This document shows, one piece after another, positions 1,001 to 16,959 of a stretch of DNA of 52,278 nucleotides (positions are counted from its first letter, which is position 1; the number at the start of each line of letters is the position of its first letter). This DNA comes from Candidatus Latescibacterota bacterium (GTDB lineage Bacteria > Latescibacterota > UBA2968). The notes beneath the pieces were generated by a model. It worked only from the letters and a program-made list of their open reading frames with translations, was not told the DNA's origin and searched no databases. The stretch covers positions 86,278 to 138,555 of the forward strand of contig JAYODI010000006.1 in the NCBI GenBank assembly GCA_038279365.1. The letters run 5' to 3'. A program made the translations under genes and the position numbers.

Positions 1001-2188
1001 TTAAGCCAATGCCTGTGCAAAATCTGCGAGAATATCTTCGGTGTCTTCAATGCCAACCGCCACCCGCACAAGTTCATCTGCAATGCCAATGGCCAACCGA
1101 TCTTCCCGATCCAATTCATAATAAGAAATAGACGCCGGGTGAGACACAATACTCTCAACCCCACCCAAACTGGCGCCAATACACGGAATTTTTAAACGGT
1201 CAATAAACGCCAAAGTACCCGCTTGATCGGTGTCCAGGTCAAAACTCACCACACCACCAAACCCACGCATTTGGGCCTTTGCAATTTCATAATGTGGGTG
1301 CGTCTCCAAACCAGGGTAATAAACGCGTTTTATTTTGGGATGCCCATCTAAAAATTGTGCCAAAGCCAAAGTCGTTTCATTGTGGCGTTGCATCCGCAAA
1401 GGGAATGTCTTCAAACCACGAATCAGCAAATATGCACAATGCGGATCGACCACACCGCCCAAAATACCCCGATAATCCCGAATGGCTCCAACCAAAAGCT
1501 CGCTACCGGCTATCACACCTGCCATCAAATCGTTGTGTCCACCAAAATATTTGGTGGCACTGTGAATTACCAGATCAATGCCAAACTCTAATGGACGCTG
1601 ATTAAACGGCGTTGCAAAAGTGCTATCAATAATGGTCTTAACACGATGTTTTTTGGCAATAGCAACCACACGTTCCAAATCAATCACATTGAGATGTGGA
1701 TTGGTTGGCGATTCAGAAACCAACACCCGCGTATTGTCTTGGATAGCACATTCAAGGGCTTCATAATCACCCGCATGGACGAAGGTTGTTTCGATACCAA
1801 ATTTGCGCAAAACCATTTTGCAAAATTGCGCCGTTTTACGATAACAATCATCCATCATCACAACATGTTGCCCAGTAGAAAGCATGGCCAATAATGCTGT
1901 GGTCACTGCCCCCATACCCGACGAAAACAATATCGCGGCTTCGGCGCCTTCTATTTCTGCCAATTTTTTTTCAGCTATATGTTGGGTCGGATTGCCATAT
2001 CGGCCATAATCAATCTGGGGATTTTCCCCTCCCACAAAGTCCAGAACGGCTTGGGTGTTTTCAAAAACATAGGTCGAAGTTTGGGCAATGGGTACCGTTA
2101 ATGAATTTTTCCAATGCCCTTTTTCTTCTCCACCGTGAATGGCACGGGTAGATGTACACACCACATCACGCGCTTGATCTTCGGACAT
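1001..2188 (-). CDS. metB: Cystathionine gamma-synthase, plant-type (Cys/Met metabolism PLP enzyme)
   Basis: Motifs YGRYGNPT, SSGMGA, DCYRKT, ESPTNP, DSTFATP, HSATKYFGGHND (PLP Lys) and SLGGVES. RBS GAGGAG upstream; preceded by a SAM riboswitch. Confidence 0.85.
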   Translation of the reverse strand: MSEDQARDVVCTSTRAIHGGEEKGHWKNSLTVPIAQTSTYVFENTQAVLDFVGGENPQIDYGRYGNPTQHIAEKKLAEIEGAEAAILFSSGMGAVTTALLAMLSTGQHVVMMDDCYRKTAQFCKMVLRKFGIETTFVHAGDYEALECAIQDNTRVLVSESPTNPHLNVIDLERVVAIAKKHRVKTIIDSTFATPFNQRPLEFGIDLVIHSATKYFGGHNDLMAGVIAGSELLVGAIRDYRGILGGVVDPHCAYLLIRGLKTFPLRMQRHNETTLALAQFLDGHPKIKRVYYPGLETHPHYEIAKAQMRGFGGVVSFDLDTDQAGTLAFIDRLKIPCIGASLGGVESIVSHPASISYYELDREDRLAIGIADELVRVAVGIEDTEDILADFAQALA

Positions 2189-2207
2189 ACTCTACATCTC
2201 CTCATAC

Positions 2208-2239
2208 AAAAAACGGGACTGCCGCTAAGCAAGTCCCGT
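2208..2239 (-). terminator. Second terminator-like hairpin in the metB leader
   Basis: Minus strand ACGGGAC-T-TGC-TTAGCG-GCA-GTCCCGT followed by a T run, just upstream of the RBS. Confidence 0.65.
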
Positions 2240-2248
2240 ATCATACGC

Positions 2249-2275
2249 AAAAAAACCGGTCTAAAAAGCCCGGTG
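2249..2275 (-). terminator. Riboswitch-associated intrinsic terminator
   Basis: Minus strand ACCGGGCT-TTTT-AGACCGGT followed by a T run, directly after the aptamer. Confidence 0.7.
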
Positions 2276-2276
2276 A

Positions 2277-2330
2277 CTTTTTAGCGACTTGTTTAGAGTG
2301 GCTGCAATATGACGCAAATCACCACTTCCC
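2277..2330 (-). ncRNA. SAM-II (SAM_alpha-type) riboswitch aptamer
   Basis: Minus strand GGAAGTGGTGATTTGCGTCATATTGCAGCCACTCTAAACAAGTCGCTAAAAAG matches the SAM-II pattern GTGGTGATTTG...TTGCAGCCAC..TAAACAA.TCGCTAAA. P1 is AGTGG/CCACT. It lies upstream of a methionine biosynthesis gene. Confidence 0.88.
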
Positions 2331-2364
2331 GATCAATGTTGTAACCCAATGTAACCAAAAGGTC

Positions 2365-3726
2365 TTAGCCTGTCAACTCTTGGTTCTTTTCAATGGCGCG
2401 AAAGATCGCATCGCGCACAAAATCTGCTTTGGGCGGCAAAACCACAGGCTCATTACGCAAATGAGCAGAAACCCCATGTGCTTTGAGAGTATCCTGGTGA
2501 TAACCCAATTTAAATTCTGTAAATTTCAACCCATGGGCCGTTGAAATGACAACAACACGATCGCGCTTTTTAATCACACCCCGATCGACCAATTTAAATA
2601 ATGCTGCAAAAGCTACGCCCGTATGTGGGCAAGTAAACAACCCTGTACGATCTGCACGCGCTGCGGCATCGGCCAATTCTTGTTCGGTTGCCTGCTCCAC
2701 AATACCGCCAAAAGACTTGAGTGTATCAATCGCTTTTTCGCGACTTACAGGATTTCCTATTTGAATGGCATTGGCCAATGTGGGCTTGGCTGGAACTGCT
2801 TCAAAGCTGTCAAAATTTTTCATATAGCTTTGATACAACGGATTGGCCTGAGCACTTTGTGCAACCACAATACGCGGCATTTTGTCAATGAGCCCTATAG
2901 CCTGCATTTCGCGAAATCCCTTGCCCAGTGCGCTTACATTGCCCAAGTTGCCACCAGGTATCACAATCCAGTCGGGCACTTCCCAATCAAACTGTTGTAC
3001 CAATTCAAAGCTGATCGTCTTTTGGCCTTCAACCCGCAAAGAGTTCATAGAATTGGCCAAATAAATATTCTCTTTCAAACAAATTTCCTGCACCAATGTC
3101 ATACACCCATCAAAATCCGTTTCCAAACTCAAAACCAACGCCCCATTTGCCAAAGGTTGAAGCAATTGTGCGGTCGAAATCTTATCCTTTGGCAAAAACA
3201 CAATCGATTGAATACCCGCCGCTGCAGCATAAGCCGCCAAAGCTGCAGACGTATCCCCTGTGGACGCACACGCCACAGCCGGAACCTGTTGGCCATTGGC
3301 AATCATCTGCTTGACCATAGACACCAAAACGGTCATGCCCAAATCTTTAAAAGAACCTGTATGACTGTTGCCACACTGCTTCACCCAAAGTTCATCCACC
3401 CCAATTTCTTTGCCCAAGCGATCTGCCCAAAAAAGATTGCTCCCCCCCTCAAACATTGACACCACATTGGCATTGTCTACCGTTGGGCAAACCAACTCCT
3501 TTTTCCCCCACACAGAGCTGCCATAAGGCCACTCTGTACGCATATAGCGTTGATCAAACAGGTCACGCCAAGCATCTGCCGAACGTGTCTTGAGTGCTTC
3601 AATATCGTGCGCAACTTCCAACAACCCGCCACATGTTGGGCACTCATAAATCACATCGGTGAGCGGATACTTGCCTTCACACCCTCGAAAGCAACGAAAC
3701 CAAGATTGAAACTGTGCGTCACCCAT
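2365..3726 (-). CDS. thrC: Threonine synthase, plant-like class
   Basis: Motifs [11 protein letters not shown] (PLP Lys), [24 protein letters not shown] and STAHGLKF; N-terminal [18 protein letters not shown] as in plant threonine synthases. Confidence 0.93.
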
Positions 3727-3874: not shown

Positions 3875-4636
3875 TTATATGATTCCTAACGCATCACGCT
3901 TCACCCACCCGCCCACACCATTAGACAAGCGCACCAAAAACCAATTTCCTTCTGTGCGTTCCACAAATACTTTGGTGCCTTCATGTAAAACAAAAACCTG
4001 CAAAAAATCATCTCCAGGCCCGCTGCGTCCAAAAGCCTCATCGTTCAAAACAATGGCCTTCTCTTCACCGCGTTGTTGCACTTTAAGGACCAACAAACCA
4101 CCACTGCCAACAAGCCCCACCCCCAACACCACCAACAAAACCATCCAAATAACACGCCTGAATGGAAAAAACAACCACCCAACCAAACCACCCGCTATTC
4201 CAAATACAAAAAAACACAAAAACACAGATAATGTATTGATGCTCCACAAATGATAAATCCAAAGCAAGATGCGTGTCAAAAAATTGGGATCTTCGCTTGT
4301 TTCTTTATCCACCCGACGTGCATTGGCAAACCTCAAATTGGCCAGTATATCTTCATCATTGGGCATCAACCTTAACGCACGTTCATAGGCCAAAATAGCG
4401 TGTCCTAACTGCTCATTTTTATAATAAGCATTGCCCAAGTTATAATACACTTCTCCATTTTGAAGCCCTTGACCAATCACTTGTTCATAAGCAGAAATAG
4501 CCTGTTCATAGTCGCCATTGCGATAATGAACATTACCTTGATTATATAATCCCACCAAACCTTCTGTCGCATCCGTTACAGTGCTCACAGCAAGCAACAT
4601 CAAAACTACAAAACGTAACATTCTCAACCCCGGCAT
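3875..4636 (-). CDS. batE: BatE-like protein (TPR repeats, TM helices, C-terminal SH3-like domain)
   Basis: TPR motifs YYNLGNAYYK and AILAYERAL, two TM helices, and LHEGTKV...W..VRL..G..GWV; last gene of the bat cluster. Confidence 0.85.
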   Translation of the reverse strand: MPGLRMLRFVVLMLLAVSTVTDATEGLVGLYNQGNVHYRNGDYEQAISAYEQVIGQGLQNGEVYYNLGNAYYKNEQLGHAILAYERALRLMPNDEDILANLRFANARRVDKETSEDPNFLTRILLWIYHLWSINTLSVFLCFFVFGIAGGLVGWLFFPFRRVIWMVLLVVLGVGLVGSGGLLVLKVQQRGEEKAIVLNDEAFGRSGPGDDFLQVFVLHEGTKVFVERTEGNWFLVRLSNGVGGWVKRDALGII

Positions 4637-6498
4637 TATATCTCACGCTCCAAATAATCAATCACCTCGACTGCTTTTTCATACAATGCTTTTACTTGCT
4701 GAGCATTCATTTGCCCGGGTGCAAAACGGGCCATATCACATTGTTGAAAAATATGACGTACCTGAACAATGTATTCCTCATCAATGTTTTTATCTTTTAA
4801 TATCTTGCAGGCCTCTTCGGCAGTCATACCTGCGGCAGATCGGTTCAAACGATCGGCCAAAAATTGTGCCACAGACCGATGCAGTTCCGCATGGAAAGCG
4901 GCGCGATCTCCGCCATCCATCAATAGCGAAGCCTCCCCCAATCGTTTTCGAGCTTCAGAGTGTGCGCGACGCCTTCGGGCATAGGCCACATCTCCTTCCA
5001 GCCGCTCTTGGTGTTTGCGATACACATATGCAACCACCACACCCACAACGGGCAGAAATTGCAACAGCCAATAACTGCCACGCTGATACAACAACTGGCT
5101 GTGATCAACCAACTGTTCTCTGTCTGGCTTAATATACCGAATATCTTGCCCCAAAAGCCGAACTTCTTCGCGATTTGCAATCACTTCTGGTTGTGACAAA
5201 TTCCGATTGGGCGTTACGGTAAGTGCAATGGGGCGCGAGGCAACGGTTTCATAACGTTCCTGAACGGGATCAAAAAAGACCAGTTTAAAGGGCGGCAATT
5301 CGACATCCCCTGATTTTTCTGGAATCATCACATATTCAAACGTTTTTTTTCCGCCATAACGCCCACCTTGCACATCGGCCTCTAAAGTCGTCTTGGGGTC
5401 ATAAAAACGAAATTGAGGATCATTTGGACGAACAGGTTCTAATATGGCCTGCAAATTCCCAACACCAACCACATTGACTTTAACAGAAACAGGATCTCCT
5501 GCAAGCACAGCATTTGGCGTTGCATCAACCGTGATATCAAACCGACCTACGACACCCGAAAAACCCTGTGGTGCTCCCGTAGGCAAAGGTTTAACTTCCA
5601 CGGAAATGTCTTCAGATCGCACAGTGACTTGCTGTGTGCGAAAAGGGTCAAACGAATCAAATGGATCAAAACCAAATAAACTTCTCGACCGTGTACGCAT
5701 GGGTATATCACAAACAACTTCCAACTGATCCAATTGGTGGGTACCCCGTGTGGTCGGGAACAAAGCCAACCGTTTCAATTCTGAAACATTATAAGCCCGC
5801 CCATCAACCACTTCACGTTTGAGATCTAAGCGTTTTGCATCAAAAATAGTTTCTGCCCAAAAACCGGTAAATGTGGGTATTTGACCATAATGCACATTGT
5901 TCAAGTCATAACGCGTGTAGAGTTTATACGTAATTCCCACCTGTTCACCCACATAAACCGACTGCTTATCTGGCACAGCCTGCAAAAACAAATTATCTTG
6001 AATTTCCTGAATCTGCTCTGTGCTCAAAGACTGTCCCGGTGAAGGGGTCGGTCGCGTTTGTGCTTGCCCTGTGGCTTTGATCACTTCAATACGTAAAGAA
6101 GACGACTGATAGGTTTTTCCTTCATGTATGACCCTAGCTGGCCCCAAAACAAAAGACCCTTCTTTTTCGGTGCGAAAAGAAAAGGCATACGTCGTTGTTC
6201 GGGTCGTTGACATCGCACCATTCACAATACTGATGGAGGTAGATGTAGAAGACGTGCTACCTACCAATTGTAGGCCATTGGGCGATGGCACTTCGGGTGC
6301 GGGCAAGCCACTTATCTGTTGTGCTTCCACCGACACCGTAAATTGAACAATCTCACCCACCTCAACACGCGAACGATCAACCGATGCATCCATGGATACC
6401 TGTGCCTGAATATTTTGCACCGCAAACAGTACCAAGCACAAACTCAGCATCCAATATTTATTTACAATATCCATCTCGTTACCAATTTTAAAGGCCAT
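4636..6498 (-). CDS. batD: BatD oxygen-tolerance protein (Ig-like BatD repeats plus C-terminal TM)
   Basis: Signal peptide, STSISIVNG, VYVGEQV..TYKLY, GFWAE, FSGVVGRF, DIRYIK and CDMARFAP. The start may be the downstream ATG (MDIV). Confidence 0.88.
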   Translation of the reverse strand: MAFKIGNEMDIVNKYWMLSLCLVLFAVQNIQAQVSMDASVDRSRVEVGEIVQFTVSVEAQQISGLPAPEVPSPNGLQLVGSTSSTSTSISIVNGAMSTTRTTTYAFSFRTEKEGSFVLGPARVIHEGKTYQSSSLRIEVIKATGQAQTRPTPSPGQSLSTEQIQEIQDNLFLQAVPDKQSVYVGEQVGITYKLYTRYDLNNVHYGQIPTFTGFWAETIFDAKRLDLKREVVDGRAYNVSELKRLALFPTTRGTHQLDQLEVVCDIPMRTRSRSLFGFDPFDSFDPFRTQQVTVRSEDISVEVKPLPTGAPQGFSGVVGRFDITVDATPNAVLAGDPVSVKVNVVGVGNLQAILEPVRPNDPQFRFYDPKTTLEADVQGGRYGGKKTFEYVMIPEKSGDVELPPFKLVFFDPVQERYETVASRPIALTVTPNRNLSQPEVIANREEVRLLGQDIRYIKPDREQLVDHSQLLYQRGSYWLLQFLPVVGVVVAYVYRKHQERLEGDVAYARRRRAHSEARKRLGEASLLMDGGDRAAFHAELHRSVAQFLADRLNRSAAGMTAEEACKILKDKNIDEEYIVQVRHIFQQCDMARFAPGQMNAQQVKALYEKAVEVIDYLEREI

Positions 6499-6527
6499 TT
6501 AATACGTATCTTGTTTATCCCCAAAAG

Positions 6528-7385
6528 CTACCACGCATTGCCATTATAACGCCGTCCAGAAACCTTTATTTTACGTCGTTTTTGCGATGCTTCATCTCGG
6601 TCTTTCATTGCATCTAAAATACGCGCCGCTTCTTCTTGTGTCAATTCCCCAGGCTGTCCTTGGGCTTGCTGTGGATTCTGCTGATCGGCATTTGGGTCTT
6701 GCTTGTCCTGATTCTGTTGACCGTCCTTAGTCTGATCTTGATCTTGTTGTTGCTTTTGTTCCTGATCCTGCTGGTCTTGGTCTTCTTTATTACCCTGATC
6801 TTGTTTTTCCTGCTGGTCTTGATCCTGTTGTTGTTCTTGATCTTTGTTTTCTTGATTTTGGTCTTGTTGTTTATCTTGGTCCTGGTTCCCTTGTTTGTCT
6901 TGATTCTGATCTTGTTTATTGTCTTGGTTCTTGTCTTGGTTTTGCTGTTGCTGTTGCATTTTTTCCAATGCCAATTCCAAATTGACTTTGGCATCTTGAT
7001 CTTTGGGGTTTTTCATCAACGACTTTTTATAGGCACCAACGGCTTCTTGGTATTTTTCTTGCCTGAAAAACGCATTGCCCAAATTATAATACGCCTCAGC
7101 ACTTAAGCTCTGATTGTCAGATTCAACCACACGCCCCAACTCCTGTGCGGCTTCTTCATATTTGCCCTGCTTATACAATGCGTCACCCACATTAAAGCGC
7201 AGTTCCGAGCGACTGGGCGCATTTTGTTGGGCTTCCAAATACCGCTTCAATGCCGCATCATATTCGCCCTTGCCAAACAAATCATTGCCTTCTTGGTTTT
7301 TCTTTGCAACGGGGTCTAAAAATGTAAATCCCCAAAAAGGCAATAACAAAATCACCATTAAAAGCCGCACTAAAAAATTCCGCAT
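6528..7385 (-). CDS. batC: BatC-like TPR protein with Q/D/N/K-rich linker
   Basis: TPRs (YYNLGNAFFRQEKYQEAVGAYKKSL, AKVNLELA), low-complexity linker, LTQEEAARILDAM and C-terminal W. The ATG at 7385 has an AGGA upstream. Confidence 0.85.
   Translation of the reverse strand: MRNFLVRLLMVILLLPFWGFTFLDPVAKKNQEGNDLFGKGEYDAALKRYLEAQQNAPSRSELRFNVGDALYKQGKYEEAAQELGRVVESDNQSLSAEAYYNLGNAFFRQEKYQEAVGAYKKSLMKNPKDQDAKVNLELALEKMQQQQQNQDKNQDNKQDQNQDKQGNQDQDKQQDQNQENKDQEQQQDQDQQEKQDQGNKEDQDQQDQEQKQQQDQDQTKDGQQNQDKQDPNADQQNPQQAQGQPGELTQEEAARILDAMKDRDEASQKRRKIKVSGRRYNGNAW
6660..6960 (-). repeat. Low-complexity coding repeat (Q-D-K-N) in batC
   Basis: Degenerate tcttg/tgatc units on the + strand encode QDQDKQQDQNQ-like repeats. 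Confidence 0.8.
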
Positions 7386-7420
7386 CACCCTATTCCTTAT
7401 CGTTGTCAACACAGGACACA

Positions 7421-8446
7421 CTACTGTTCAAACCGCCCACGCCACTCTTCTTTTTCTCTTCGCCGATCCGACAACAGCGCTTCGCCCAAAAAACAAATAA
7501 GAGCAAGCCCCAATGGCCACTGAAAACGATGTTTATATTGTGAATATTTGCGTGATCCCAAATCTCTCTTCTCCATTTGAGAAATTTGCTCATACACGGC
7601 TTGAAGGCCAATGCCCCCCCCACCCGCACGCACATATAACCCACCAGACTCTTCGGCAATGGCACGCAATGTCGCTTCATCTAAGCGGGTCTTAACGATA
7701 TTCCCCGCTTCATCTTTTAAGTAATCGACCCGATCCCCTTCACGTATCGGTATCAGCTCTCCATCAGGTGTACCAACCCCTACCACAAAAATGCGAACGC
7801 CTACTTTGGCGGCTTCCTGAGCGACAGCAATAGGATCGTCCACGTGGTTTTCACCATCTGTAATTAAGATCAGTGCTTGGTATTTTCCTTCCGACGAACC
7901 AAAGGCCCGAATGCTATTGCGCATCGCATCAGCCAAAGCCGTTCCTTGAACCGGAATCAAATCTGTTGTTGCCGAATCGAGAAACAATTTGGCAGCACCA
8001 TAATCTAAAGTGAGCGGGCACAAAACATGGCTGCGCCCTGCAAATGCAATAAGACCAACCCGATCACCCTCTAACCGATCAATTAAATCTGCAATCTCAT
8101 ACCGTGCACGCGTTAAACGGTTAGGCCGAATATCTTCGGCCAGCATGCTCAAAGACGTATCTAAGGCAATAACCAAATCCACCCCTCGACGCTGTATCAA
8201 TTCCATTTGTGTGCCAAATTGTGGTTGCACCAATGCCAAAACAAGAAACAAAAAACCAGCAACCACCAATCCAGCCTTTGTCCACTGCCGTCCTAAGCTG
8301 GCCATATGGGTCAACTTGGCCACCAGCACAGGGTTACCAAATGAGGCCAATGCACGTTTTTTACGCCTAAAACCCCATATGTAAAACAACACCAATATGG
8401 GCACAAAAATCAAAAACCAAAAAGCAAATGGATCACCAAATCGCAT
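7421..8446 (-). CDS. batB: BatB vWA-domain membrane protein
   Basis: MIDAS DTSLSM, PNRL, DRVGLIAFAG, CPLTLDY, QGTAL and ITDGENH. Confidence 0.88.
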   Translation of the reverse strand: MRFGDPFAFWFLIFVPILVLFYIWGFRRKKRALASFGNPVLVAKLTHMASLGRQWTKAGLVVAGFLFLVLALVQPQFGTQMELIQRRGVDLVIALDTSLSMLAEDIRPNRLTRARYEIADLIDRLEGDRVGLIAFAGRSHVLCPLTLDYGAAKLFLDSATTDLIPVQGTALADAMRNSIRAFGSSEGKYQALILITDGENHVDDPIAVAQEAAKVGVRIFVVGVGTPDGELIPIREGDRVDYLKDEAGNIVKTRLDEATLRAIAEESGGLYVRAGGGGIGLQAVYEQISQMEKRDLGSRKYSQYKHRFQWPLGLALICFLGEALLSDRRREKEEWRGRFEQ

Positions 8447-9445
8447 TTAGGGCAACCTCCGAAAACGCGTGGTGGCCAACACAACCTCAAGCATTAAAAA
8501 AAACAAACCTGGCCACAAAAATTTCTCAAACAGTTCTTGATAATCCACATATTCGCGTACTTTGATTTCCGTCTTCTCCATGTCACCAATTTCTGCATAA
8601 ATCGATTCTAATTTTTCTGCACTTGTCGCACGAAAATATTTTCCACCCGTAATATCGGCCACCTCTTTTAACGTCTCTTCATCAATTTCTACTTTAACAG
8701 GTACAAATCGTTTTCCAAAAATGGTACTTTGTTCTTGCATAATGGTGCCTTCACTGCCTGCACCGATGGTATAAATACGCACCCCAACGGCCTTGGCTGC
8801 TTTGGCCGCTGTCATAGGGTCAATTTCACCCCGATTATTTTTGCCATCTGTCAACAAGATGATCACTTTGCTTTGTGCCTCAGACTCACGCAAGCGGTTC
8901 ACTGCTGTTGCAATGCCCAAACCAATGGCTGTGCCATCCCAATCGCCTTCGGCAATCTCAACACCATCCAAAAACCCCTTAAACACATCATAATCCAAAG
9001 TCAATGGGCATTGTGTATAACTTTCCCCCGCAAAGACCACCAAACCCAATCGGTCATTTGCTCGCCCCCCCACAAATTCGGCAACCACATCTTTAGATAC
9101 GGCCAAGCGCGTTCTGCGCTGGTTGGCCAAATCTTTGGCCTCCATACTGCTCGACACATCCAAGGCCAACACAATATCAATGCCTTGGCTTAAAATCTCA
9201 CGGCCTTCACGGCCCGATTGGGGGCGCGCCATTGCCACAATCAACAACACCAACCCCAAACAACGAAACACCATCAAACTATGTCGCAATTTTAAAGAAA
9301 GGGATGGGCCAATCTGTTTAAATGCACCAATACCCGAAAACCGAATGCGCCCTCTTTTTTGTCGTTCTTGGTAAATATAACGATAAACCAACACGGGAAT
9401 AATTAGCAGCAACACCAACCACTCTGGGTCTTGAAATCGAATCAT
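8447..9445 (-). CDS. batA: BatA vWA-domain membrane protein
   Basis: ARPQ, MIDAS DVSSSM, QCPLTLDY, DGTAIG, LLTDGKNN and TGGKYFRA. Confidence 0.9.
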   Translation of the reverse strand: MIRFQDPEWLVLLLIIPVLVYRYIYQERQKRGRIRFSGIGAFKQIGPSLSLKLRHSLMVFRCLGLVLLIVAMARPQSGREGREILSQGIDIVLALDVSSSMEAKDLANQRRTRLAVSKDVVAEFVGGRANDRLGLVVFAGESYTQCPLTLDYDVFKGFLDGVEIAEGDWDGTAIGLGIATAVNRLRESEAQSKVIILLTDGKNNRGEIDPMTAAKAAKAVGVRIYTIGAGSEGTIMQEQSTIFGKRFVPVKVEIDEETLKEVADITGGKYFRATSAEKLESIYAEIGDMEKTEIKVREYVDYQELFEKFLWPGLFFLMLEVVLATTRFRRLP

Positions 9446-10389
9446 GAAATCACACCCTTTGCTTCTGGTGATTTTTCTTTTCCTTTTGAGCTAATCAACA
9501 CCGTCAAAATGGCTTCTACGGTTGGTAAGGCGTTTTTCATCACATCCACTGTAGGCGTAAATTTTGCAAACTTAACCATATCTGCTTGCATCAAAAAAGC
9601 CTCTACTTGTTGCACAAAATCACTGTCTACACCATCTGCACGCAAATCGCGTGCAATTTCAAATGTCGTTTCTTCAACGGCGCGAACCGTGGTTTTTGCT
9701 TCAATACATCTTCTCAAAATATCCGAAAGCAAAGAATAATAGGTTTTGTATTGTTGTTGCTCGATCAAATTCATGTTTTTGATTTTGTTTAATTCTGCCA
9801 TCCAATCAATTGGAGGAGCCGGAGGCACAATTGTGGGGCGTTTCTTGCGCTTGCGCAACCACCACAGACCAACTGCAATTCCAATGAGAACCGCACCCAG
9901 TACCAACCAAGCCCAAAGAGGTATTGTTGCCTCAATCTGAACAGGTGGTTTGACATCCCGAATTTCAGACTCTCCTGCAGGTTTCACGCTTTGAATGGTT
10001 ACCGAAATGGCACGCGAAGCAACGCGCCCAGAGTCACCGTTGCTCAAAACATAACGCAACCCCAAGGGGGGAACTTCAAATGTGCCCAATTGAAAAATGG
10101 TCAGCACCACATCTGTGGTTTCTTGGATGCGCCCACTATCTTGGGAAAGTGTTTGTACGGGTCGCTTTTCCAATATTTCAAATGGTGTCGGGAAATGATC
10201 ATCCCACTCAAAAGTTGTGACATCGCCAGCATCACGCAACACGCGCATACGAAAAACAATGGGGTCACCGATTGTAATGGTATCTCGGTTGACCCCTGCT
10301 CGAAAATCAACTGCGGCATCAACCGGAAGGACACTGCCAAAATATCCAACCCACACCGTCAGTAAAAATAAAAAAATTCTGTTCATCAC
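9442..10389 (-). CDS. Bat-cluster membrane protein (BatD-like N-terminus, DUF4381-like)
   Basis: Signal peptide, ITIGDP, IRDVKPP, a TM helix, YYSLLSDILR, ETTFEI and ADMVKFAKF; usual position before batA. Confidence 0.75.
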   Translation of the reverse strand: MMNRIFLFLLTVWVGYFGSVLPVDAAVDFRAGVNRDTITIGDPIVFRMRVLRDAGDVTTFEWDDHFPTPFEILEKRPVQTLSQDSGRIQETTDVVLTIFQLGTFEVPPLGLRYVLSNGDSGRVASRAISVTIQSVKPAGESEIRDVKPPVQIEATIPLWAWLVLGAVLIGIAVGLWWLRKRKKRPTIVPPAPPIDWMAELNKIKNMNLIEQQQYKTYYSLLSDILRRCIEAKTTVRAVEETTFEIARDLRADGVDSDFVQQVEAFLMQADMVKFAKFTPTVDVMKNALPTVEAILTVLISSKGKEKSPEAKGVIS

Positions 10390-10415
10390 GTCCTATTCTG
10401 CTCCCAGTTTTATCC

Positions 10416-11762
10416 CTATTGGGAGATACCACCCAATGGCAAACGCAAGCCCGCCATCACACCATAATCAAATGAAAACACCTCATCCGAACCCTGCATC
10501 ATCCCATACCAACCATCATAGCCTTGCCCAATCAATACCTCTCTTACCAATGCCTCCCCACGCCACAACGAAACAGTCAACACCGGTTGGGTCAAACCAT
10601 ATGCGTCTAAATTCTGTTCGGCCCCCATAAAGTCTGCTACGGCCATTGTATGAACCTTATCAATCCAAGTTCCCACAATGTCCTCTGTTGCAACATATCC
10701 TGCAGGGTTTACCACCTTCCAATTTCCCGCTTCCAATACACACGTCACCGTACTATCTGGGTAGGCCAACTGAATTTTATCAATGCCCTTACGATCAAAT
10801 TCAAAAACCCGTTTGTATCGAATAGAGCCCAAATCAATATTTAAAAAGTCCGTCATAAACGGTTCAACCAGAAAAACATAGGGTCTTTCTGACGAACTGG
10901 CGTACCATAAGCGAGAGCGCACATCTTCAACCGTTTTGCCCAGTGTAAGCGTGCGTGCCTCACCATTTTTATTCCCCACTGTCAATTGGTAACTTGGCGT
11001 GTCAAAGCCATACAGTGTAGGGTCTTCAAATGTTTCGGCAACAATATCAACCACACGCTCAGCCCGTACCGTACCCAAAATATTGTTAATTTCTGCCTCA
11101 TCCCCCATATACGCCCCAGGAGAGACAATTTGCCATCTAAAACCATTTCGAACCATTTCAAAGGTCTTACCATGATGCTTTAAAACCACTCTTTGAACCA
11201 GATCCAAATCAAACGGTAAAATACGTTGATCGCGAAGATCTAACAATTTTAAATCAAATCGATTTCGAAAAGACCGCTGTGTCAATACAATTTGATTGCC
11301 ACCCGACCAACTCAAATACGCCGCACGTCCAGCAGGATTGTCATCGCCAAAAAGCAACCAAATATCGTCTCCAGACTGACTCTCAAAACGCAATTCAACA
11401 CGCGGAGGTTGCAAGCCAAAAGCTGCCAAATCTGTTTTGTCATAAGCTTCCGCATCAACAATAACGCGTCCACGCTCCACGGCTCTGGCAGCCGTTACCA
11501 TAGCCTCAAACTGTTCCCAATCGCCAGGTGTTTCAATGGGTTCTTTAATGAGCCAATCGTTGCCTTGTTTTTCAGCCACAAATTTACCAAACCGATTCAC
11601 AATTGTAAACTTGGCAACAGTTTGACGCTTGACGTCCAAAAACTCCTTTTGAGCGGCAATTGCTTTTTGCTCTTCTTCAATTTTGGGGCGTTCATAAAAA
11701 AACACAAATCCAACCAAAAGCAACAAACAAACACCCAACAAACCCGTTATTTTAGGACTCAT
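10416..11762 (-). CDS. DUF4340 domain protein
   Basis: N-terminal TM helix and three repeats ending (A/L)(F/Y)G(L/F)..P; lies next to the GldG-like gene. Confidence 0.8.
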   Translation of the reverse strand: MSPKITGLLGVCLLLLVGFVFFYERPKIEEEQKAIAAQKEFLDVKRQTVAKFTIVNRFGKFVAEKQGNDWLIKEPIETPGDWEQFEAMVTAARAVERGRVIVDAEAYDKTDLAAFGLQPPRVELRFESQSGDDIWLLFGDDNPAGRAAYLSWSGGNQIVLTQRSFRNRFDLKLLDLRDQRILPFDLDLVQRVVLKHHGKTFEMVRNGFRWQIVSPGAYMGDEAEINNILGTVRAERVVDIVAETFEDPTLYGFDTPSYQLTVGNKNGEARTLTLGKTVEDVRSRLWYASSSERPYVFLVEPFMTDFLNIDLGSIRYKRVFEFDRKGIDKIQLAYPDSTVTCVLEAGNWKVVNPAGYVATEDIVGTWIDKVHTMAVADFMGAEQNLDAYGLTQPVLTVSLWRGEALVREVLIGQGYDGWYGMMQGSDEVFSFDYGVMAGLRLPLGGISQ

Positions 11763-11812
11763 ATTTTATCTCTTTGCATAGAAACAACCAACATCTTGCG
11801 TTTAAAGGATCG

Positions 11813-13195
11813 CTAACGACGGCGCAACCAAACACCCACGCCTGCCAAGATAGGTATGAGTGGCAAAACCAACCACGAAACCCACCGAATCCAAAATTCA
11901 TCACCAGGAGCCAGCTCTAAAGGGCGAAACTGTGCCGATTTGGGACGAATGGTAATTTGATCCCGTTCGTTCAACAACCAACTGACAGAATTCATCAACA
12001 AGTCACCATTTCCAGCCACATCAACAAATTGATTGGTGGCAAAGTCGGAATCTCCAAAAACAACCAACCGAGCCCTTGGTGAGCGACGAATCTCTTCTGT
12101 TGTTTTAAAATTTAAAGGCCCAGCAACAGCCATAGACATCCAAAGAGGGCCTGGTTTATCTGCCCCAGAATCATACTTAATTTCTTCAACGCGTTTTTCT
12201 TTTAAGGCATTTAAGTTGGTCTCACTCCAACTGCGTGGCGACGACATGGCCAAGGCAGAAACTTCAGATCCAGGCAGAGACCCCACACGTTCAACAGAAC
12301 GGGTTAATGGGAAAAATGTCATCAGGCCCGAGTGTTTGTCTGTTATGGGATGTTTGCTGTAATTTGCCGTAACAGGCACAGAAAAATCGGCTTCTGGCAA
12401 CGCATTGCTGTTATCCACAATAAAGTCATTTCGCAACCCAACCGACCATTGAAACAACAAAGGCTCCAATCCTGTATCTATGAGTGGGTCGAGTAAAAAT
12501 AAAGCTGCGCCACTTTCATCCAGATATTCCGAAATGGCCCCAATCTCAGATGCCAGCAATGCGCCCTTGGGCCCACCAATAATCAATAAGTCACAATCGC
12601 GAGGCACTTTTTGCACTTGTGCCAAAATCAAGGGTGGGCGCACATCATTATTGTTTTCAATCAACATTTGCTTAAAGCGCTTAAACCCTTTTCCCGTATC
12701 TTGATCAATATTTACCTCGTCGTGCCCACCCAAAAAGTAAACCACTTGACGCGCATCACTTGTAATTCTTGCAATGCCATTGGTCAACGCCTTTTCAGTC
12801 CCTTCAGCAATGCGCTCTTCTTTTTGCCCATATTCTATAATAGATGTGCCATAATTGGTCACCTTATAACGCTTGGCTTCTATGGGTTCTTTGTCAGGAT
12901 CAATTAACCGATAAGAAAAATGCTTTGAATGATAAGCATACTGCTCCAACAATCGTTCAAATTCATCGCGTTCTGTCTCGCGAAAAAAACCAATAACCGT
13001 CAAGCCCTCTTCTAAGTTTTCAAGCAACGAAATCGTCTTAGGCGACAACGTATACAACCCCTGCTGAGTCAAATCATATCTTGTGTAGTAGCGTGTCGAT
13101 AAAAAATTAACCACAGCCAATATGCCCAAAGCAATCAACACAGCAGAAAGCGCATTGGAACCATATTTTAACGTGCGCCGACTAAATAATGCCAT
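11813..13195 (-). CDS. GldG-family ABC transporter auxiliary component
   Basis: RYDLT...YTLS..T, IDPDKEP, VYFLGGHDE, HPIT, RLVVFGDSDF, GNGDLLMNSVSWL and a C-terminal TM followed by RRR. Confidence 0.85.
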   Translation of the reverse strand: MALFSRRTLKYGSNALSAVLIALGILAVVNFLSTRYYTRYDLTQQGLYTLSPKTISLLENLEEGLTVIGFFRETERDEFERLLEQYAYHSKHFSYRLIDPDKEPIEAKRYKVTNYGTSIIEYGQKEERIAEGTEKALTNGIARITSDARQVVYFLGGHDEVNIDQDTGKGFKRFKQMLIENNNDVRPPLILAQVQKVPRDCDLLIIGGPKGALLASEIGAISEYLDESGAALFLLDPLIDTGLEPLLFQWSVGLRNDFIVDNSNALPEADFSVPVTANYSKHPITDKHSGLMTFFPLTRSVERVGSLPGSEVSALAMSSPRSWSETNLNALKEKRVEEIKYDSGADKPGPLWMSMAVAGPLNFKTTEEIRRSPRARLVVFGDSDFATNQFVDVAGNGDLLMNSVSWLLNERDQITIRPKSAQFRPLELAPGDEFWIRWVSWLVLPLIPILAGVGVWLRRR

Positions 13196-13198
13196 CTC

Positions 13199-13972
13199 TT
13201 AAGCCCTCCATCTATGCGACTCAAGCACATTGTGAGTCACAAACAGGAAAAACAAAGTTGCACTTAAAAAGAAGACAATGTCATGGGTATCAACCACCCC
13301 CTGAATCATATCGCGGGTATGTTCGACCAAAGACAAAAATTTCAGTATCACAAAAAATACATCTCCAGCATAACGTGCCGCCCAATCGATCATCCACAAT
13401 AATATGAGCATAAAAAATGACAGCACAGCGGCAATAATCTGATTTTCTGTCAATGATGAAGCCAAAATGCCCACACTAATAAATGTGCCCCCCATCAACA
13501 AAACAGCCAATGCCCCCGAATAAACAGGCCCCCAATCAATGCGTGCATACATAGCCAAAATGCCCAAATAACCAAATGCCAAAAATTCAATCAGTGCATA
13601 TAAAACATAACAGGCCAAAAACTTGCCCATCAAAATTTGCCCCGAAGTAATGGGCGACGTCATCAACAATTCATATGTTCCCCCACGCTTTTCCTCTGCA
13701 TAAAGCCGCATGGTCAACATAGGAATCACAATCATCCAAACAAATGTTTGAAATTCAAAAAAAGATTCCACAACCACTTCATTCACATTTAAGCGCGATT
13801 TCTCTTCATACTCTGCAAATTTTAAAAACACGCTCATGTCGTGAAATTCGAGCACTTGATTTCGAAAAATAAACCCAGTAAACAACAAAAACACCCCCGC
13901 CATCACATAGGCAATGGGAGAACCAAAATAAGAACGCATCTCTTTACCAAATATCGCCAGGACATTGCCCAT
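13199..13972 (-). CDS. GldF-like ABC-2 permease
   Basis: KEMRSYFGSPIAY, PMLTMRLYAEEKRGGTYELLMTSP, GKFLA and SSLTENQIIAA. Confidence 0.88.
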   Translation of the reverse strand: MGNVLAIFGKEMRSYFGSPIAYVMAGVFLLFTGFIFRNQVLEFHDMSVFLKFAEYEEKSRLNVNEVVVESFFEFQTFVWMIVIPMLTMRLYAEEKRGGTYELLMTSPITSGQILMGKFLACYVLYALIEFLAFGYLGILAMYARIDWGPVYSGALAVLLMGGTFISVGILASSLTENQIIAAVLSFFMLILLWMIDWAARYAGDVFFVILKFLSLVEHTRDMIQGVVDTHDIVFFLSATLFFLFVTHNVLESHRWRA

Positions 13973-14910
13973 CAGACCCCCTCCTCACGCGTGGTTAACG
14001 CATGGAAAATTTCTTCCAATGACATATCTTCTCGGCGCATCTCCAATAACCCCATGCCCAATTCTACCACTTTGGCCGATAAAATTGGCCCCCAATCTCG
14101 GTCGGAGGGGCAATCAATAATAATGACATTTTCGCCCTCGTGTGTATCAATAGACACATCAACCACATCTGGCAAATCAGCCAACCCACGCACCGCCACA
14201 GATGCATCTCCCGAAACTCGCACCGCAAATCGCAACGTACCACGCATATTGGCTGTCAAATTTTCGGGGGTATCTATCGCCTCAATTTTGCCATGATTAA
14301 TAATAATAACCCGGTCACAGGTCATTTCTACTTCGGGTAAAATATGGGTGCTCAAAATAACCGTACGCTCTTTGGCCAAGGTGCGAATCAAATTCCGCAC
14401 CTCAATAATCTGATTGGGGTCTAACCCCGATGTTGGCTCATCCATAATAATCACGTCGGGATTATGAATAATGGCCTGCGCCAATCCTACACGCTGACGA
14501 TATCCTTTTGACAACTGTCCAATAAGTTGCCGAGCCCGATCTTTTAAGCCACATTGCTCCAACACTTCAACTATACGACCGGGCTTTTCAGATTTGGACA
14601 CCCCCTTAATATTGGCCACAAAATCCAAATAGGCTTCTACGCGCATATCGGGGTATAAAGGCGGGAGCTCAGGCAAATAACCAATGCGCTTTTTAACCTC
14701 CAAGGGTTCTTCAAAAATGTCAAAGCCTGCAATGCGAGCCGTGCCCTGACTGGCAGGTAAAAAACACGTCAATACCCGCATCGTTGTGGTTTTTCCAGCA
14801 CCATTGGGTCCCAAAAAACCCACAATCTCTCCTTTACCCACTTCAAACGAGATATTGTCTACGGCTGTAAAGGAACCGTATTGTTTGGTTAAATGATCAA
14901 CTTCAATCAC
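13972..14910 (-). CDS. GldA-like ABC transporter ATP-binding protein
   Basis: Walker A GPNGAGKTT, signature LSKGYRQRVG, Walker B IIMDEPT and switch STH. Confidence 0.92.
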   Translation of the reverse strand: MIEVDHLTKQYGSFTAVDNISFEVGKGEIVGFLGPNGAGKTTTMRVLTCFLPASQGTARIAGFDIFEEPLEVKKRIGYLPELPPLYPDMRVEAYLDFVANIKGVSKSEKPGRIVEVLEQCGLKDRARQLIGQLSKGYRQRVGLAQAIIHNPDVIIMDEPTSGLDPNQIIEVRNLIRTLAKERTVILSTHILPEVEMTCDRVIIINHGKIEAIDTPENLTANMRGTLRFAVRVSGDASVAVRGLADLPDVVDVSIDTHEGENVIIIDCPSDRDWGPILSAKVVELGMGLLEMRREDMSLEEIFHALTTREEGV

Positions 14911-14986
14911 AGCAGTCCCCCCATCAAAACATGCACGGCTTCTACGACGATATATCTACGAACACAACATAGACCCAAACCATCCA

Positions 14987-15883
14987 CTAAGCCCGTCTTT
15001 TTTGCGCCCGTCTTTTAAAAAAACGCATTAAAGGTTCTGTATAAGGCTCTTGCATACCAATTTCCACTGTATCAACACCCACCTTGCGAAACATCTGTGT
15101 GCGTTTTTGAGCTGTTTCTATGGCCATGTTTGAAAACAAACGACGCACTTCTGAATCACCAAAATCTACCAACACACCTTCCCCGGTTTCAGCGTCTTCC
15201 AGCTCTACAATACCAATATCTGGCAAATCCACTTCACGAGGATCCGACAAGGCAATGGCTACCAAGTCATGCCTTTTGTTGGCAATACGCAAGGCTTTTT
15301 CATAACCATCCGCCATAAAATCAGAAACCAAAAAAGCCACGCTTTTGCGCCGTGTTACCCGATTCAAATACTCCAAGGCCACACCCAAATTGGTACCGCG
15401 TCGTTTGGGGCGAAAATACAACAATTCTCGGATCACCCGCAAAACGTGTTTTTTCCCTTTTTTAGGCGGAATAAACAACTCCACCTCATCTGTAAAAACA
15501 ATGAGTCCCACACGGTCATTATTTTGAATGGCCGAAAAAGCAAGCAACGCACAAATCTCAACGCCCACCTCACCCTTCATCTGCTCAACGGTACCAAAAT
15601 CTCCCGATGCACTGGCATCGACCATCAACATCACCGTGAGTTCTCGCTCTTCATCAAACACTTTTACATAAGGGTCAGACATACGCGCCGTGACATTCCA
15701 ATCAATCGTGCGAATATCATCTCCCACCTGATATTCACGCACTTCGGCAAATGCCATGCCTTGGCCTTTGAAAACCGAATGATATTCACCTGCAAAGATG
15801 GTATTCACCAAGTTGCGCGTTCGGATCTCAATCCGTTTAACTTTTTTTAATATCTCGGCAGGAATCATAGGCGCATCGGTCAC
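14987..15883 (-). CDS. DUF58 (vWA-like) protein
   Basis: GEYHSVFKGQGMAFAEVREYQVGDDIRTIDWNVTAR, EEREL, DASAS and SDF. Confidence 0.92.
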   Translation of the reverse strand: MTDAPMIPAEILKKVKRIEIRTRNLVNTIFAGEYHSVFKGQGMAFAEVREYQVGDDIRTIDWNVTARMSDPYVKVFDEERELTVMLMVDASASGDFGTVEQMKGEVGVEICALLAFSAIQNNDRVGLIVFTDEVELFIPPKKGKKHVLRVIRELLYFRPKRRGTNLGVALEYLNRVTRRKSVAFLVSDFMADGYEKALRIANKRHDLVAIALSDPREVDLPDIGIVELEDAETGEGVLVDFGDSEVRRLFSNMAIETAQKRTQMFRKVGVDTVEIGMQEPYTEPLMRFFKRRAQKRRA

Positions 15884-15963
15884 AAATCACTGGCAGATTC
15901 AGTCATTGGTCTTAGGTCAATAACAGCAATGACCAGCAACAAAACTTACCACAACACCCTCAA

Positions 15964-16959
15964 TTAGGGTACTTCTACACGGTCAAAGACTTGACGAACA
16001 ATCTCTTCAGAGGTCACCTCTTCCGCTTCTGCTTCATAGGTCACCAAAACACGGTGTCGCAAAACATCCATACCCATTGCTTTCACATCTTCAGGCGTCA
16101 CATACCCCCGATGTCGCAAAAATGCATGCGCTTTTGCAGCACGCACAAGCGCAATAGATCCCCGAGGCGAACAGCCAAACTCTATCAAACCATCTAAATC
16201 GCGCAAACCATACTCCAATGGGGCACGTGTCGCCAATATAAGATCCACAATATAATCTTTAATTTTGGAATCCACATAGACCTGATCTGCCACATTCCGA
16301 GCCCGAATCAATTCTTCGGTTGTAATTACAGGAGTGATCTCTGGGCTTCCTTCTCCCCCCATGCGATCTACAATCAAACGTTCTTCTTGTTTGCTTGGAT
16401 ACGTAACCCGAACCTTTAACATAAACCGATCAACTTGAGCCTCTGGCAATGGGTAAGTGCCTTCTTGCTCAATGGGGTTTTGTGTGGCCAAAACCAAAAA
16501 AGGATCGGGCAATGAAAAAGTTTTATTGCCAATGGTCACTTGACGTTCTTGCATAGCTTCTAACATGGCACTTTGCACTTTAGAAGGCGCCCGATTGATT
16601 TCATCGGCCAATACCAAATTGGCAAAAACAGGCCCTTTTTGCACCACAAACTCACTTGTTTGTTGGCGATACACCACCGTACCAATCAAATCGGCGGGTA
16701 ACAAATCGGGTGTAAACTGAATGCGTTTAAACGATGCCTGAATCGTTTTGGCCAATGAATTCACCGTTAGGGTTTTGGCCAAGCCTGGCACACCCTCTAA
16801 TAAAACATGGCCATTGCAAAGCAAACCAATAAGAAGGCGTTCTATCATATCTTGTTGGCCCACGATCACTTTCCCAACTTCATTCATGAGCCGGTCAACA
16901 AAAGCACTTTCGCCAGCAACACGTTCATTAATCACTTGTATATCTTGTCCAACACTCAT
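15964..16959 (-). CDS. moxR: MoxR-family AAA+ ATPase (MoxR proper)
   Basis: GVPGLAKT, RIQFTPDLLPAD, LADEINRAP, ATQNPIEQEGTYPLPEAQVDRF and SPRG. Confidence 0.95.
   Translation of the reverse strand: MSVGQDIQVINERVAGESAFVDRLMNEVGKVIVGQQDMIERLLIGLLCNGHVLLEGVPGLAKTLTVNSLAKTIQASFKRIQFTPDLLPADLIGTVVYRQQTSEFVVQKGPVFANLVLADEINRAPSKVQSAMLEAMQERQVTIGNKTFSLPDPFLVLATQNPIEQEGTYPLPEAQVDRFMLKVRVTYPSKQEERLIVDRMGGEGSPEITPVITTEELIRARNVADQVYVDSKIKDYIVDLILATRAPLEYGLRDLDGLIEFGCSPRGSIALVRAAKAHAFLRHRGYVTPEDVKAMGMDVLRHRVLVTYEAEAEEVTSEEIVRQVFDRVEVP

Follow-up and report, generated by a model that had tools for sequence, protein, structure and literature searches.

[quoted passage not shown] In S. meliloti, SAM-dependent termination is predicted for metZ and an sRNA of ~100 nt has been reported (PMC9373788, in its section on this leader), and the hosts named in the relevant passages of PMC1273637 and PMC2258182 are Proteobacteria and Bacteroidetes. 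Two successive decision points for one ligand, the first of them a terminator, are found in the tandem SAM-II/SAM-II and SAM-II/SAM-V arrangements treated in part of the review PMC9481103; the phrases 'two terminator', 'tandem terminator' and 'dual terminator' each have 0 occurrences in that review. The nearest published case of two terminators behind a single aptamer that I found is the c-di-GMP-I riboswitch Bc1 of the Bacillus cereus group, whose dual terminators lie 28 bp apart; according to the abstract of PMC11218506, only its T1 unfolds with ligand, whereas its T2, which remains intact, masks the response, and regulation is incoherent.

In this study I describe a SAM-II leader from an uncultured organism, Candidatus Latescibacterota bacterium, of which a stretch of 52 kb (the window) was analysed. 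The leader resembles the known terminator-type SAM-II riboswitches in its aptamer family, in its predicted OFF logic ahead of a methionine gene, and in the layout outlined in the pertinent part of PMC1273637, with a near-consensus -35/-10 promoter just before P1 and a putative terminator between P2 and the open reading frame. It differs from them in its host, which is Latescibacterota-like and not proteobacterial, and in having two putative terminators, of which the conserved one lies 40-50 nt away and would be controlled by long-range pairing. An earlier sequence-only reading of this DNA had regarded a terminator platform as out of the ordinary for SAM-II, which does not agree with the first three sources cited above, in the parts concerned. 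The switch most likely acts by stopping transcription, the usual way for SAM-II, and it is probably unusual only in having two stop signals instead of one, with one aptamer controlling two successive terminators. In a limited literature search I found no report of SAM-II in Latescibacterota, and the riboswitch passages of PMC5317091 mention no SAM riboswitch.

The leader is the intergenic region of 176 nt, on the minus strand, between the threonine synthase gene and a gene for a PLP-dependent enzyme, and the locus contains the following elements (L001, L071 and L074 being the relatives introduced below):

3726..2365, minus strand: thrC (threonine synthase, 453 aa), the upstream gene, TIGR00260 with 221.6 bits against a cut-off of 167.1
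2376..2348, minus strand: sigma-70-like promoter, TTGACA-17 nt-TACATT, 10 of 12 matches
2203..2186, minus strand: RBS GAGGAG (2203-2198) and ATG start (2188-2186), the start being set by alignment with L001, L071 and L074
2188..1001, minus strand: the putatively regulated gene, encoding a PLP-dependent enzyme of Cys/Met metabolism (395 aa), MetB/MetZ/MetY-like, PF01053 with 457 bits

The gene had been called metB, and this name holds as far as membership of PF01053 is concerned, but not further: all the best NCBIfam equivalogs of the protein remain below their cut-offs, so that 'metB' is indistinguishable from metZ or metY. Between the RBS and the true start codon, the window has an ATG followed at once by TAG (2197-2192, minus strand), which may be meaningless or a start-stop mini-ORF; in L001, the counterpart of this ATG lies in frame, and a start there would lengthen the gene by three codons. 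Elsewhere in the window, positions 4636-16959 of the minus strand hold a long same-strand cluster resembling a Bat/aerotolerance operon, with BatD, a TPR protein, two VWA proteins (one with a BatA N-terminus), DUF58 and a MoxR-type AAA_3 ATPase, as well as DUF4340 with ABC-transporter auxiliary and ABC-2 components. An ORF of 1624 aa (36243-41117, minus strand) has Pfam matches to Peptidase_M28 (residues 283-353) and FtsX (residues 1346-1454) only, both short, which leave the greater part of the protein unassigned.

Among the Rfam covariance models, SAM_alpha (RF00521) matches positions 2335..2260 of the minus strand with 46.9 bits against a gathering score of 36 (E 1.7e-7); the match spans model positions 1-79 of 79, and a local scan gives an identical score. 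It is the sole Rfam family reaching its gathering score across the 52 kb window, and the SAM-II identity proposed from the letters alone is thus confirmed. The aptamer, all of it on the minus strand, is made up as follows:

2326..2275, minus strand: SAM-II aptamer core (RF00521 match), with 0 substitutions against L001 over 2326-2277
2326-2321 with 2302-2297, minus strand: P1 stem, 6 bp, AGUGGU with GCCACU, all standard pairs
2320-2303, minus strand: P1 loop, 3 nt shorter than the consensus in the RF00521 alignment
2296-2286, minus strand: L3
about 2285-2277, minus strand: 3' tail, the pseudoknot strand

All P1-loop and tail letters that are highly conserved in the RF00521 consensus are present in the window. 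The predicted pseudoknot P2 is suggested by these conserved letters of the family model only, as the duplex of loop and tail is equalled by 964 of 2000 shuffles, a comparison of low power for a short triplex-stabilised helix, and cmscan scores no pseudoknots. L3 (2296-2286) and the tail (2284-2275) form a direct near-repeat on the minus strand, CUAAACAAGUC, G, CUAAAAAGUC; after its A run, the window and L001 alone have GUC, where L071 and L074 have GCC. The sequence-only reading had named a search with the SAM_alpha and SAM-V models as a check. Besides the SAM_alpha match above gathering, a scan of 2100-2450 gave the long-loop SAM-II variant RF01726 below threshold (19.7 bits against a gathering score of 44), and no SAM-V (RF01826) among the seven matches at E <= 10 in this region. 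A second aptamer ahead of the distal hairpin T2 described below, SAM-V or other, was considered and dropped, the other five of these matches having only 11.6-18.9 bits against gathering scores of 45-105. The element is situated in the 5' leader of the PF01053 gene, on the same strand and behind its own promoter, and is by its sequence a genuine member of the riboswitch class SAM-II in the leader of a methionine-pathway gene, which would be expected to bind SAM.

Relatives were gathered by a protein-guided scan with one genome per species, which gave 80 loci, and all 80 were scanned with Rfam. SAM_alpha is present in three of them:

L001: Latescibacterota MAG, 91% protein identity, RF00521 with 44.3 bits
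L071: labelled Gemmatimonadetes, 75% protein identity, RF00521 with 44.3 bits
L074: Latescibacterota MAG, 74% protein identity, RF00521 with 40.8 bits

A regular expression for the SAM-II core was too strict when run over the 80 loci, finding L001 and missing L071 and L074. The window and these three loci share one order, TPR, thrC, leader, PLP enzyme, DUF4013. L071, in spite of its Gemmatimonadetes label, has its gene order, promoter, aptamer and terminator design in common with the Latescibacterota MAG L074, at 85% protein identity, and its phylum label may be outdated or its bin mixed. SAM-I (RF00162) is found in 28 of the 80 loci, with 76-87 bits and 150-300 nt upstream of the orthologous PLP-enzyme gene, at 48-59% identity; these loci are labelled Chloroflexota, Chloroflexi, Anaerolineae or related orders and families (Anaerolineales, Anaerolineaceae, Aggregatilineales, Phototrophicaceae). 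The other 49 loci have no riboswitch recognised by Rfam, four of them (L003, L027, L069 and L045) being uninformative, with less than 250 nt upstream. The Chloroflexota leaders share with the window the PLP gene family and the use of a SAM riboswitch, whereas their S-box aptamer is of an unrelated class, and the presence of orthologues under SAM-I supports SAM control of this gene family.

Between the window and L001, four-fold sites are identical at 38.0% (184 sites) and 41.5% (159 sites). The leader itself compares with L001 as follows, where AT1 and T1 stand for a proximal antiterminator and terminator-like hairpin and T2 for a distal terminator-like hairpin:

2347-2327, minus strand: 5' flank, 7 of 21 substituted
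2326-2249 (78 nt), minus strand: aptamer, AT1, T1 and U7, 0 substitutions and one inserted A in the AT1 loop
2248-2240, minus strand: spacer between T1 and T2, 3 of 9 substituted
2239-2208 (32 nt), minus strand: T2 and U6, one substitution and one deletion, both in the 3' arm
2207-2189, minus strand: RBS region, 5 of 19 substituted

The segment from the aptamer to T1 is, to judge from this comparison, under strong purifying selection. That the element could be a chance match or a decayed remnant without function is hardly credible, as all four syntenic loci score above gathering and not one substitution is found in 78 nt while four-fold sites are near saturation.

Directly behind the aptamer, the tail was said to be followed 8 nt later by its exact complement, within a hairpin that ends in a T run. 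On the minus strand these coordinates are indeed found: the tail CUAAAAAG occupies 2284-2277, the gap of 8 nt 2276-2269, and the exact reverse complement CUUUUUAG 2268-2261. The two hairpins concerned are:

2284..2261, minus strand: AT1, proximal antiterminator hairpin, tail 2284-2275 with 2270-2261, 10 bp, loop ACCG, -8.9 kcal/mol (RNAfold)
2274..2249, minus strand: T1, proximal intrinsic-terminator-like hairpin, ACCGG 2274-2270 with CCGGU 2259-2255, then U7 at 2255-2249, -7.6 kcal/mol

As had also been read from the sequence, they are mutually exclusive, G2270 being common to both and the 3' strand of AT1 forming the loop of T1; this loop is the complement of the tail, and holds the inner T1 pairs 2268-2267/2262-2261. 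T1 starts 3 nt past the tail, which is in line with the Rfam SAM_alpha consensus, where the sequence right after the aptamer is G+C-rich. The hairpin is weak, with a 5-bp stem and either a 10-nt loop or a 1x1 internal loop, and it forms in folding when the tail is blocked. The duplex of the tail with the AT1 strand has -10.3 kcal/mol, and 36 of 2000 shuffles of the target are as good. The window contains 32 perfect 8-bp inverted repeats whose loops measure 3-12 nt, against 7.0 +/- 2.5 (maximum 12) in thirty shuffles in 200-nt blocks, and two of the 32 fall within this leader of ~100 nt.

A terminator scan of the window did not list T1, and listed the AT1 hairpin instead. The AT1 hairpin (2284..2261, tail ACCGGTTTTT) was rejected as a terminator, as the U run begins 6 nt past its stem and such a terminator would stop transcription both with and without SAM. 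Two pairings of the 5' flank that appear in minimum free energy (MFE) structures, one with the 3' arm of T1 (2334-2329/2259-2254) and one with the 3' arm of T2 (2331-2327/2218-2214), are not counted as parts of the switch, because the flank varies in L001 (see above). T1 is present in the window and L001 and missing from L071 and L074.

The terminator/antiterminator switch proposed by the sequence-only reading holds in so far as T1 forms with the tail blocked, but a second and stronger hairpin had been overlooked, which also has a long-range partner in the aptamer:

2239..2208, minus strand: T2, distal, stronger intrinsic-terminator-like hairpin, 2239-2232/2220-2213 and inner 2230-2228/2223-2221, U6 at 2213-2208, -15.7 kcal/mol
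2288..2221, minus strand: AT2, long-range antiterminator enclosing T1, 2288-2281 with 2228-2221 (8 bp) and 2279-2275 with 2235-2231 (5 bp), 13 bp in all

T2 ends 5 nt ahead of the RBS, and with the tail blocked in folding both T1 and T2 form. The AT2 duplex, in which the tail of the window pairs with the 5' half of T2, has -15.2 kcal/mol, and the corresponding duplex of L001 -16.4 kcal/mol, and in neither case does any of 2000 shuffles do as well. For the tail and the 5' half of the terminator in L071 and L074, the values are -14.8 kcal/mol (55 of 2000 shuffles as good) and -18.9 kcal/mol (28 of 2000), and the duplex is less exceptional there than in the window and L001. The near-repeat of L3 and tail provides two alternative pairing registers for the 5' half of T2, and in the L3 register 2296-2293/2291-2286 pair with 2228-2225/2235-2230 (-9.2 kcal/mol, one of 2000 shuffles as good). 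That T1 and T2 arose as a tandem duplication was also considered; their likeness alone gives no support to this, as it is expected without duplication because both must complement the same tail.

The position of T2 relative to the RBS is that of the single strong terminator in L071 and L074. In transcripts of these two loci cut before the 3' arm of the terminator, the tail and its flanks pair with the 5' arm and loop of the terminator over 17 and 18 bp, respectively, and small spacer hairpins are enclosed by this long-range pairing. The tail flank and its partner differ together by lineage: the window and L001 have GUC and its partner GAC, L071 and L074 have GCCCUG and GGGUGC. In L071 and L074, with four-fold sites identical at 30-37%, the 5' arm of the terminator is kept and the 3' arm varies yet still pairs; likewise, the 5' half of T2 shows no substitution between the window and L001. 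Stronger constraint on the 5' half than on the 3' half is as expected for a strand that has to pair with two partners. From sequence and folding together, the conserved and regulated terminator would thus seem to be the distal one, of the T2 type. The putative two-terminator layout is seen in two sequences, the window and L001, which show no compensatory changes relative to each other; the design common to the distant relatives would be T2 with its long-range antiterminator, and T1 with AT1 would be an extra proximal checkpoint of the window and L001 only.

These relatives could also be taken to mean that only T2 and AT2 work, as in L071 and L074; T1 would then be no more than a spacer hairpin closing the long-range antiterminator, and its U run would cause a pause at most. 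Small spacer hairpins are enclosed in L071 and L074 as well, T1 is weak with its -7.6 kcal/mol, and it belongs to the MFE structure in the AT2 state. However, a plain spacer needs neither a loop exactly complementary to the tail, which 36 of 2000 shuffles equal, nor seven to eight U; all 28 nt of 2276-2249 are without substitution against L001, whereas the next 9 nt carry three; and in the simulated transcription described below T1 forms in time at three of four thresholds when the tail is blocked. I therefore regard it as improbable that T1 has no part in the switch, and keep to regulation at both hairpins.

The promoter bears on which transcript is controlled. It overlaps the thrC stop, its -35 hexamer lying within the last thrC codons, and all four sequences (window, L001, L071 and L074) preserve the hexamers and the spacing of 17 nt, while the letters of the spacer diverge. 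The start site is probably near 2342-2340, as the position of the hexamers suggests. Such a conserved promoter between thrC and the aptamer implies that the switch heads its own transcript. As no terminator is found between the thrC stop (2365) and the aptamer, read-through from thrC would be gated too, but secondarily. Bacteroidetes, which belong to the same superphylum, use different promoter hexamers. If this is so, the conserved TTGACA-17-TAnAnT promoter may bear on sigma factor usage of the phylum.

Initially, the switch was thought to stop transcription between thrC and metB and so to uncouple methionine from threonine synthesis. Of this idea, the gating of thrC read-through stands as a secondary effect; mainly, the switch would govern a transcript of its own, from the conserved promoter at 2376..2348. 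In its full form, the idea would be that only AT1 and T1 are regulated, on a thrC-metB co-transcript, and that T2 is unrelated or a constitutive attenuator. AT1 and T1 are indeed exact, mutually exclusive and without substitutions against L001, thrC read-through would reach the switch with no terminator in between, and for S. meliloti metA a constitutive terminator is reported to lie downstream of the SAM-II switch (PMC9373788, in the part on that gene). Nevertheless, I consider this account unlikely: besides the intervening promoter, the 5' half of T2 complements the 3' strand of the aptamer as none of 2000 shuffles does, T2 is common to L071 and L074, which have no T1, and a constitutive hairpin of -15.7 kcal/mol with U6 before the RBS would throttle the gene always.

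The reading that I favour, and hold to be probable with some reserve, is a SAM-II OFF riboswitch with its own promoter and SAM-dependent intrinsic termination at T1 and then at T2. The aptamer match, the complementarities and the conservation are computed, and I infer that SAM binds, that transcription terminates at each of the two sites and that folding follows the order given here. The switching element would be the 3' strand of the aptamer, L3 and tail (2296-2275). With SAM bound, L3 and tail would be locked in the pseudoknot, leaving first T1 and then T2 free to form; T1 would stop the polymerase near 2249, and T2 would stop, near 2208, the polymerases that had passed T1. Without SAM, the tail would pair with 2270-2261 (AT1) once 2261 emerges, by which T1 would be blocked, and the emerging 5' half of T2 (2235-2221) would pair with the 3' strand of the aptamer, in the AT2 or the L3 register, by which T2 would be blocked and the gene transcribed.

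In folding estimates for the free RNA, AT1 belongs to the MFE structure once transcripts extend to 2260 or further, and AT2 with T1 to that of transcripts ending at 2220, 2215 and 2205. For the ends 2210 and 2200, AT1 together with full T2 has the lowest energy, and read-through of T2 would therefore depend on kinetics. Barriers were estimated at 13.2 kcal/mol from AT1 to T1, at 6.4-7.7 kcal/mol from AT1 to AT2 with T1, an exchange that is 11-12 kcal/mol downhill, and at 17.6-18.6 kcal/mol from AT2 with T1 to states containing T2. Transcription was imitated by a crude co-transcriptional walk at four barrier thresholds, with nearest-neighbour estimates that leave out pseudoknot, triplex and polymerase effects. 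In the free RNA, T1 was absent at all four thresholds and T2 at three, T2 being formed at the lowest (6 kcal/mol); in the proxy for the SAM-bound state, T1 formed in time at three thresholds and T2 at all four, with T1 still unformed at 2255 at the lowest threshold of 6 kcal/mol. These estimates suggest that the design is self-consistent, although its operation is not thereby demonstrated.

More tentatively, and rather as a possibility that I would not yet expect to hold, the leader may be a two-stage relay run by a single aptamer, a reading drawn from two related sequences and from energy models. The tail would hold off the weak T1 locally, and then the tail or L3 would pass to the complement in the stronger T2, 35 nt on, the folding of T1 paying for the exchange; T1 and T2 would in that case form a coherent dual-terminator platform. 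If this relay is true, SAM gets two time-separated chances to abort one transcript with one ligand-binding domain.

Alternatively, control could be exerted on translation, a SAM-dependent fold hiding the RBS without any termination at the hairpins and U runs. The metX SAM-II riboswitch, whose structure has been studied, is translational (PMC6061858, in the part on this RNA), and with it and with SAM-V the window shares the pseudoknot aptamer architecture and the ligand, as far as these are set out in the same part of PMC6061858. The MFE structure of the full-length L001 leader pairs the U run behind T1 with the RBS region (UUUUUUCGUG/CAUGAGGAGA), and in the window an extended T2 stem reaches G2203 of the RBS. 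Unlike in metX SAM-II and SAM-V, which occlude the RBS, however, the RBS of the window lies outside the aptamer, GAGGAG being 74 nt downstream of G2277, the last nucleotide of the tail, which agrees with the earlier estimate of about 75 nt. Moreover, nearly all of GAGGAG is unpaired in the MFE structure of the window, the pairing of U run and RBS region in L001 is absent from it, and two hairpins each directly before six to eight U have the look of terminators. Translational control is for these reasons very unlikely here, and I return to termination at T1 and T2.

As a switch with two putative terminators, the leader is like Bc1 in having one aptamer, a long expression platform and two rho-independent terminators close together, in so far as Bc1 is described in the abstract cited. 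It is unlike Bc1 in that both of its terminators complement the switching strand and are predicted to respond in the same direction, and the ligand class and phylum differ as well. With the tandem SAM-II arrangements, as presented in that part of the review, it would share the two successive decision points for one ligand and a terminator as the first of these; the tandem arrangements have two aptamers, whereas the window has one that is detectable. What is known of the working of SAM-II is unchanged by this leader, and any annotation based on Rfam would find it. Through it, the thrC/PLP-enzyme locus of an uncultured Latescibacterota-like bacterium gains a confidently annotated SAM-II riboswitch with a promoter of its own, and the PLP gene family appears to be under SAM control through different aptamer classes by phylum, SAM-II here and SAM-I in Chloroflexota. 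The leader could also serve as a compact natural case in which to ask whether one small pseudoknot aptamer can govern two terminators via two antiterminators.
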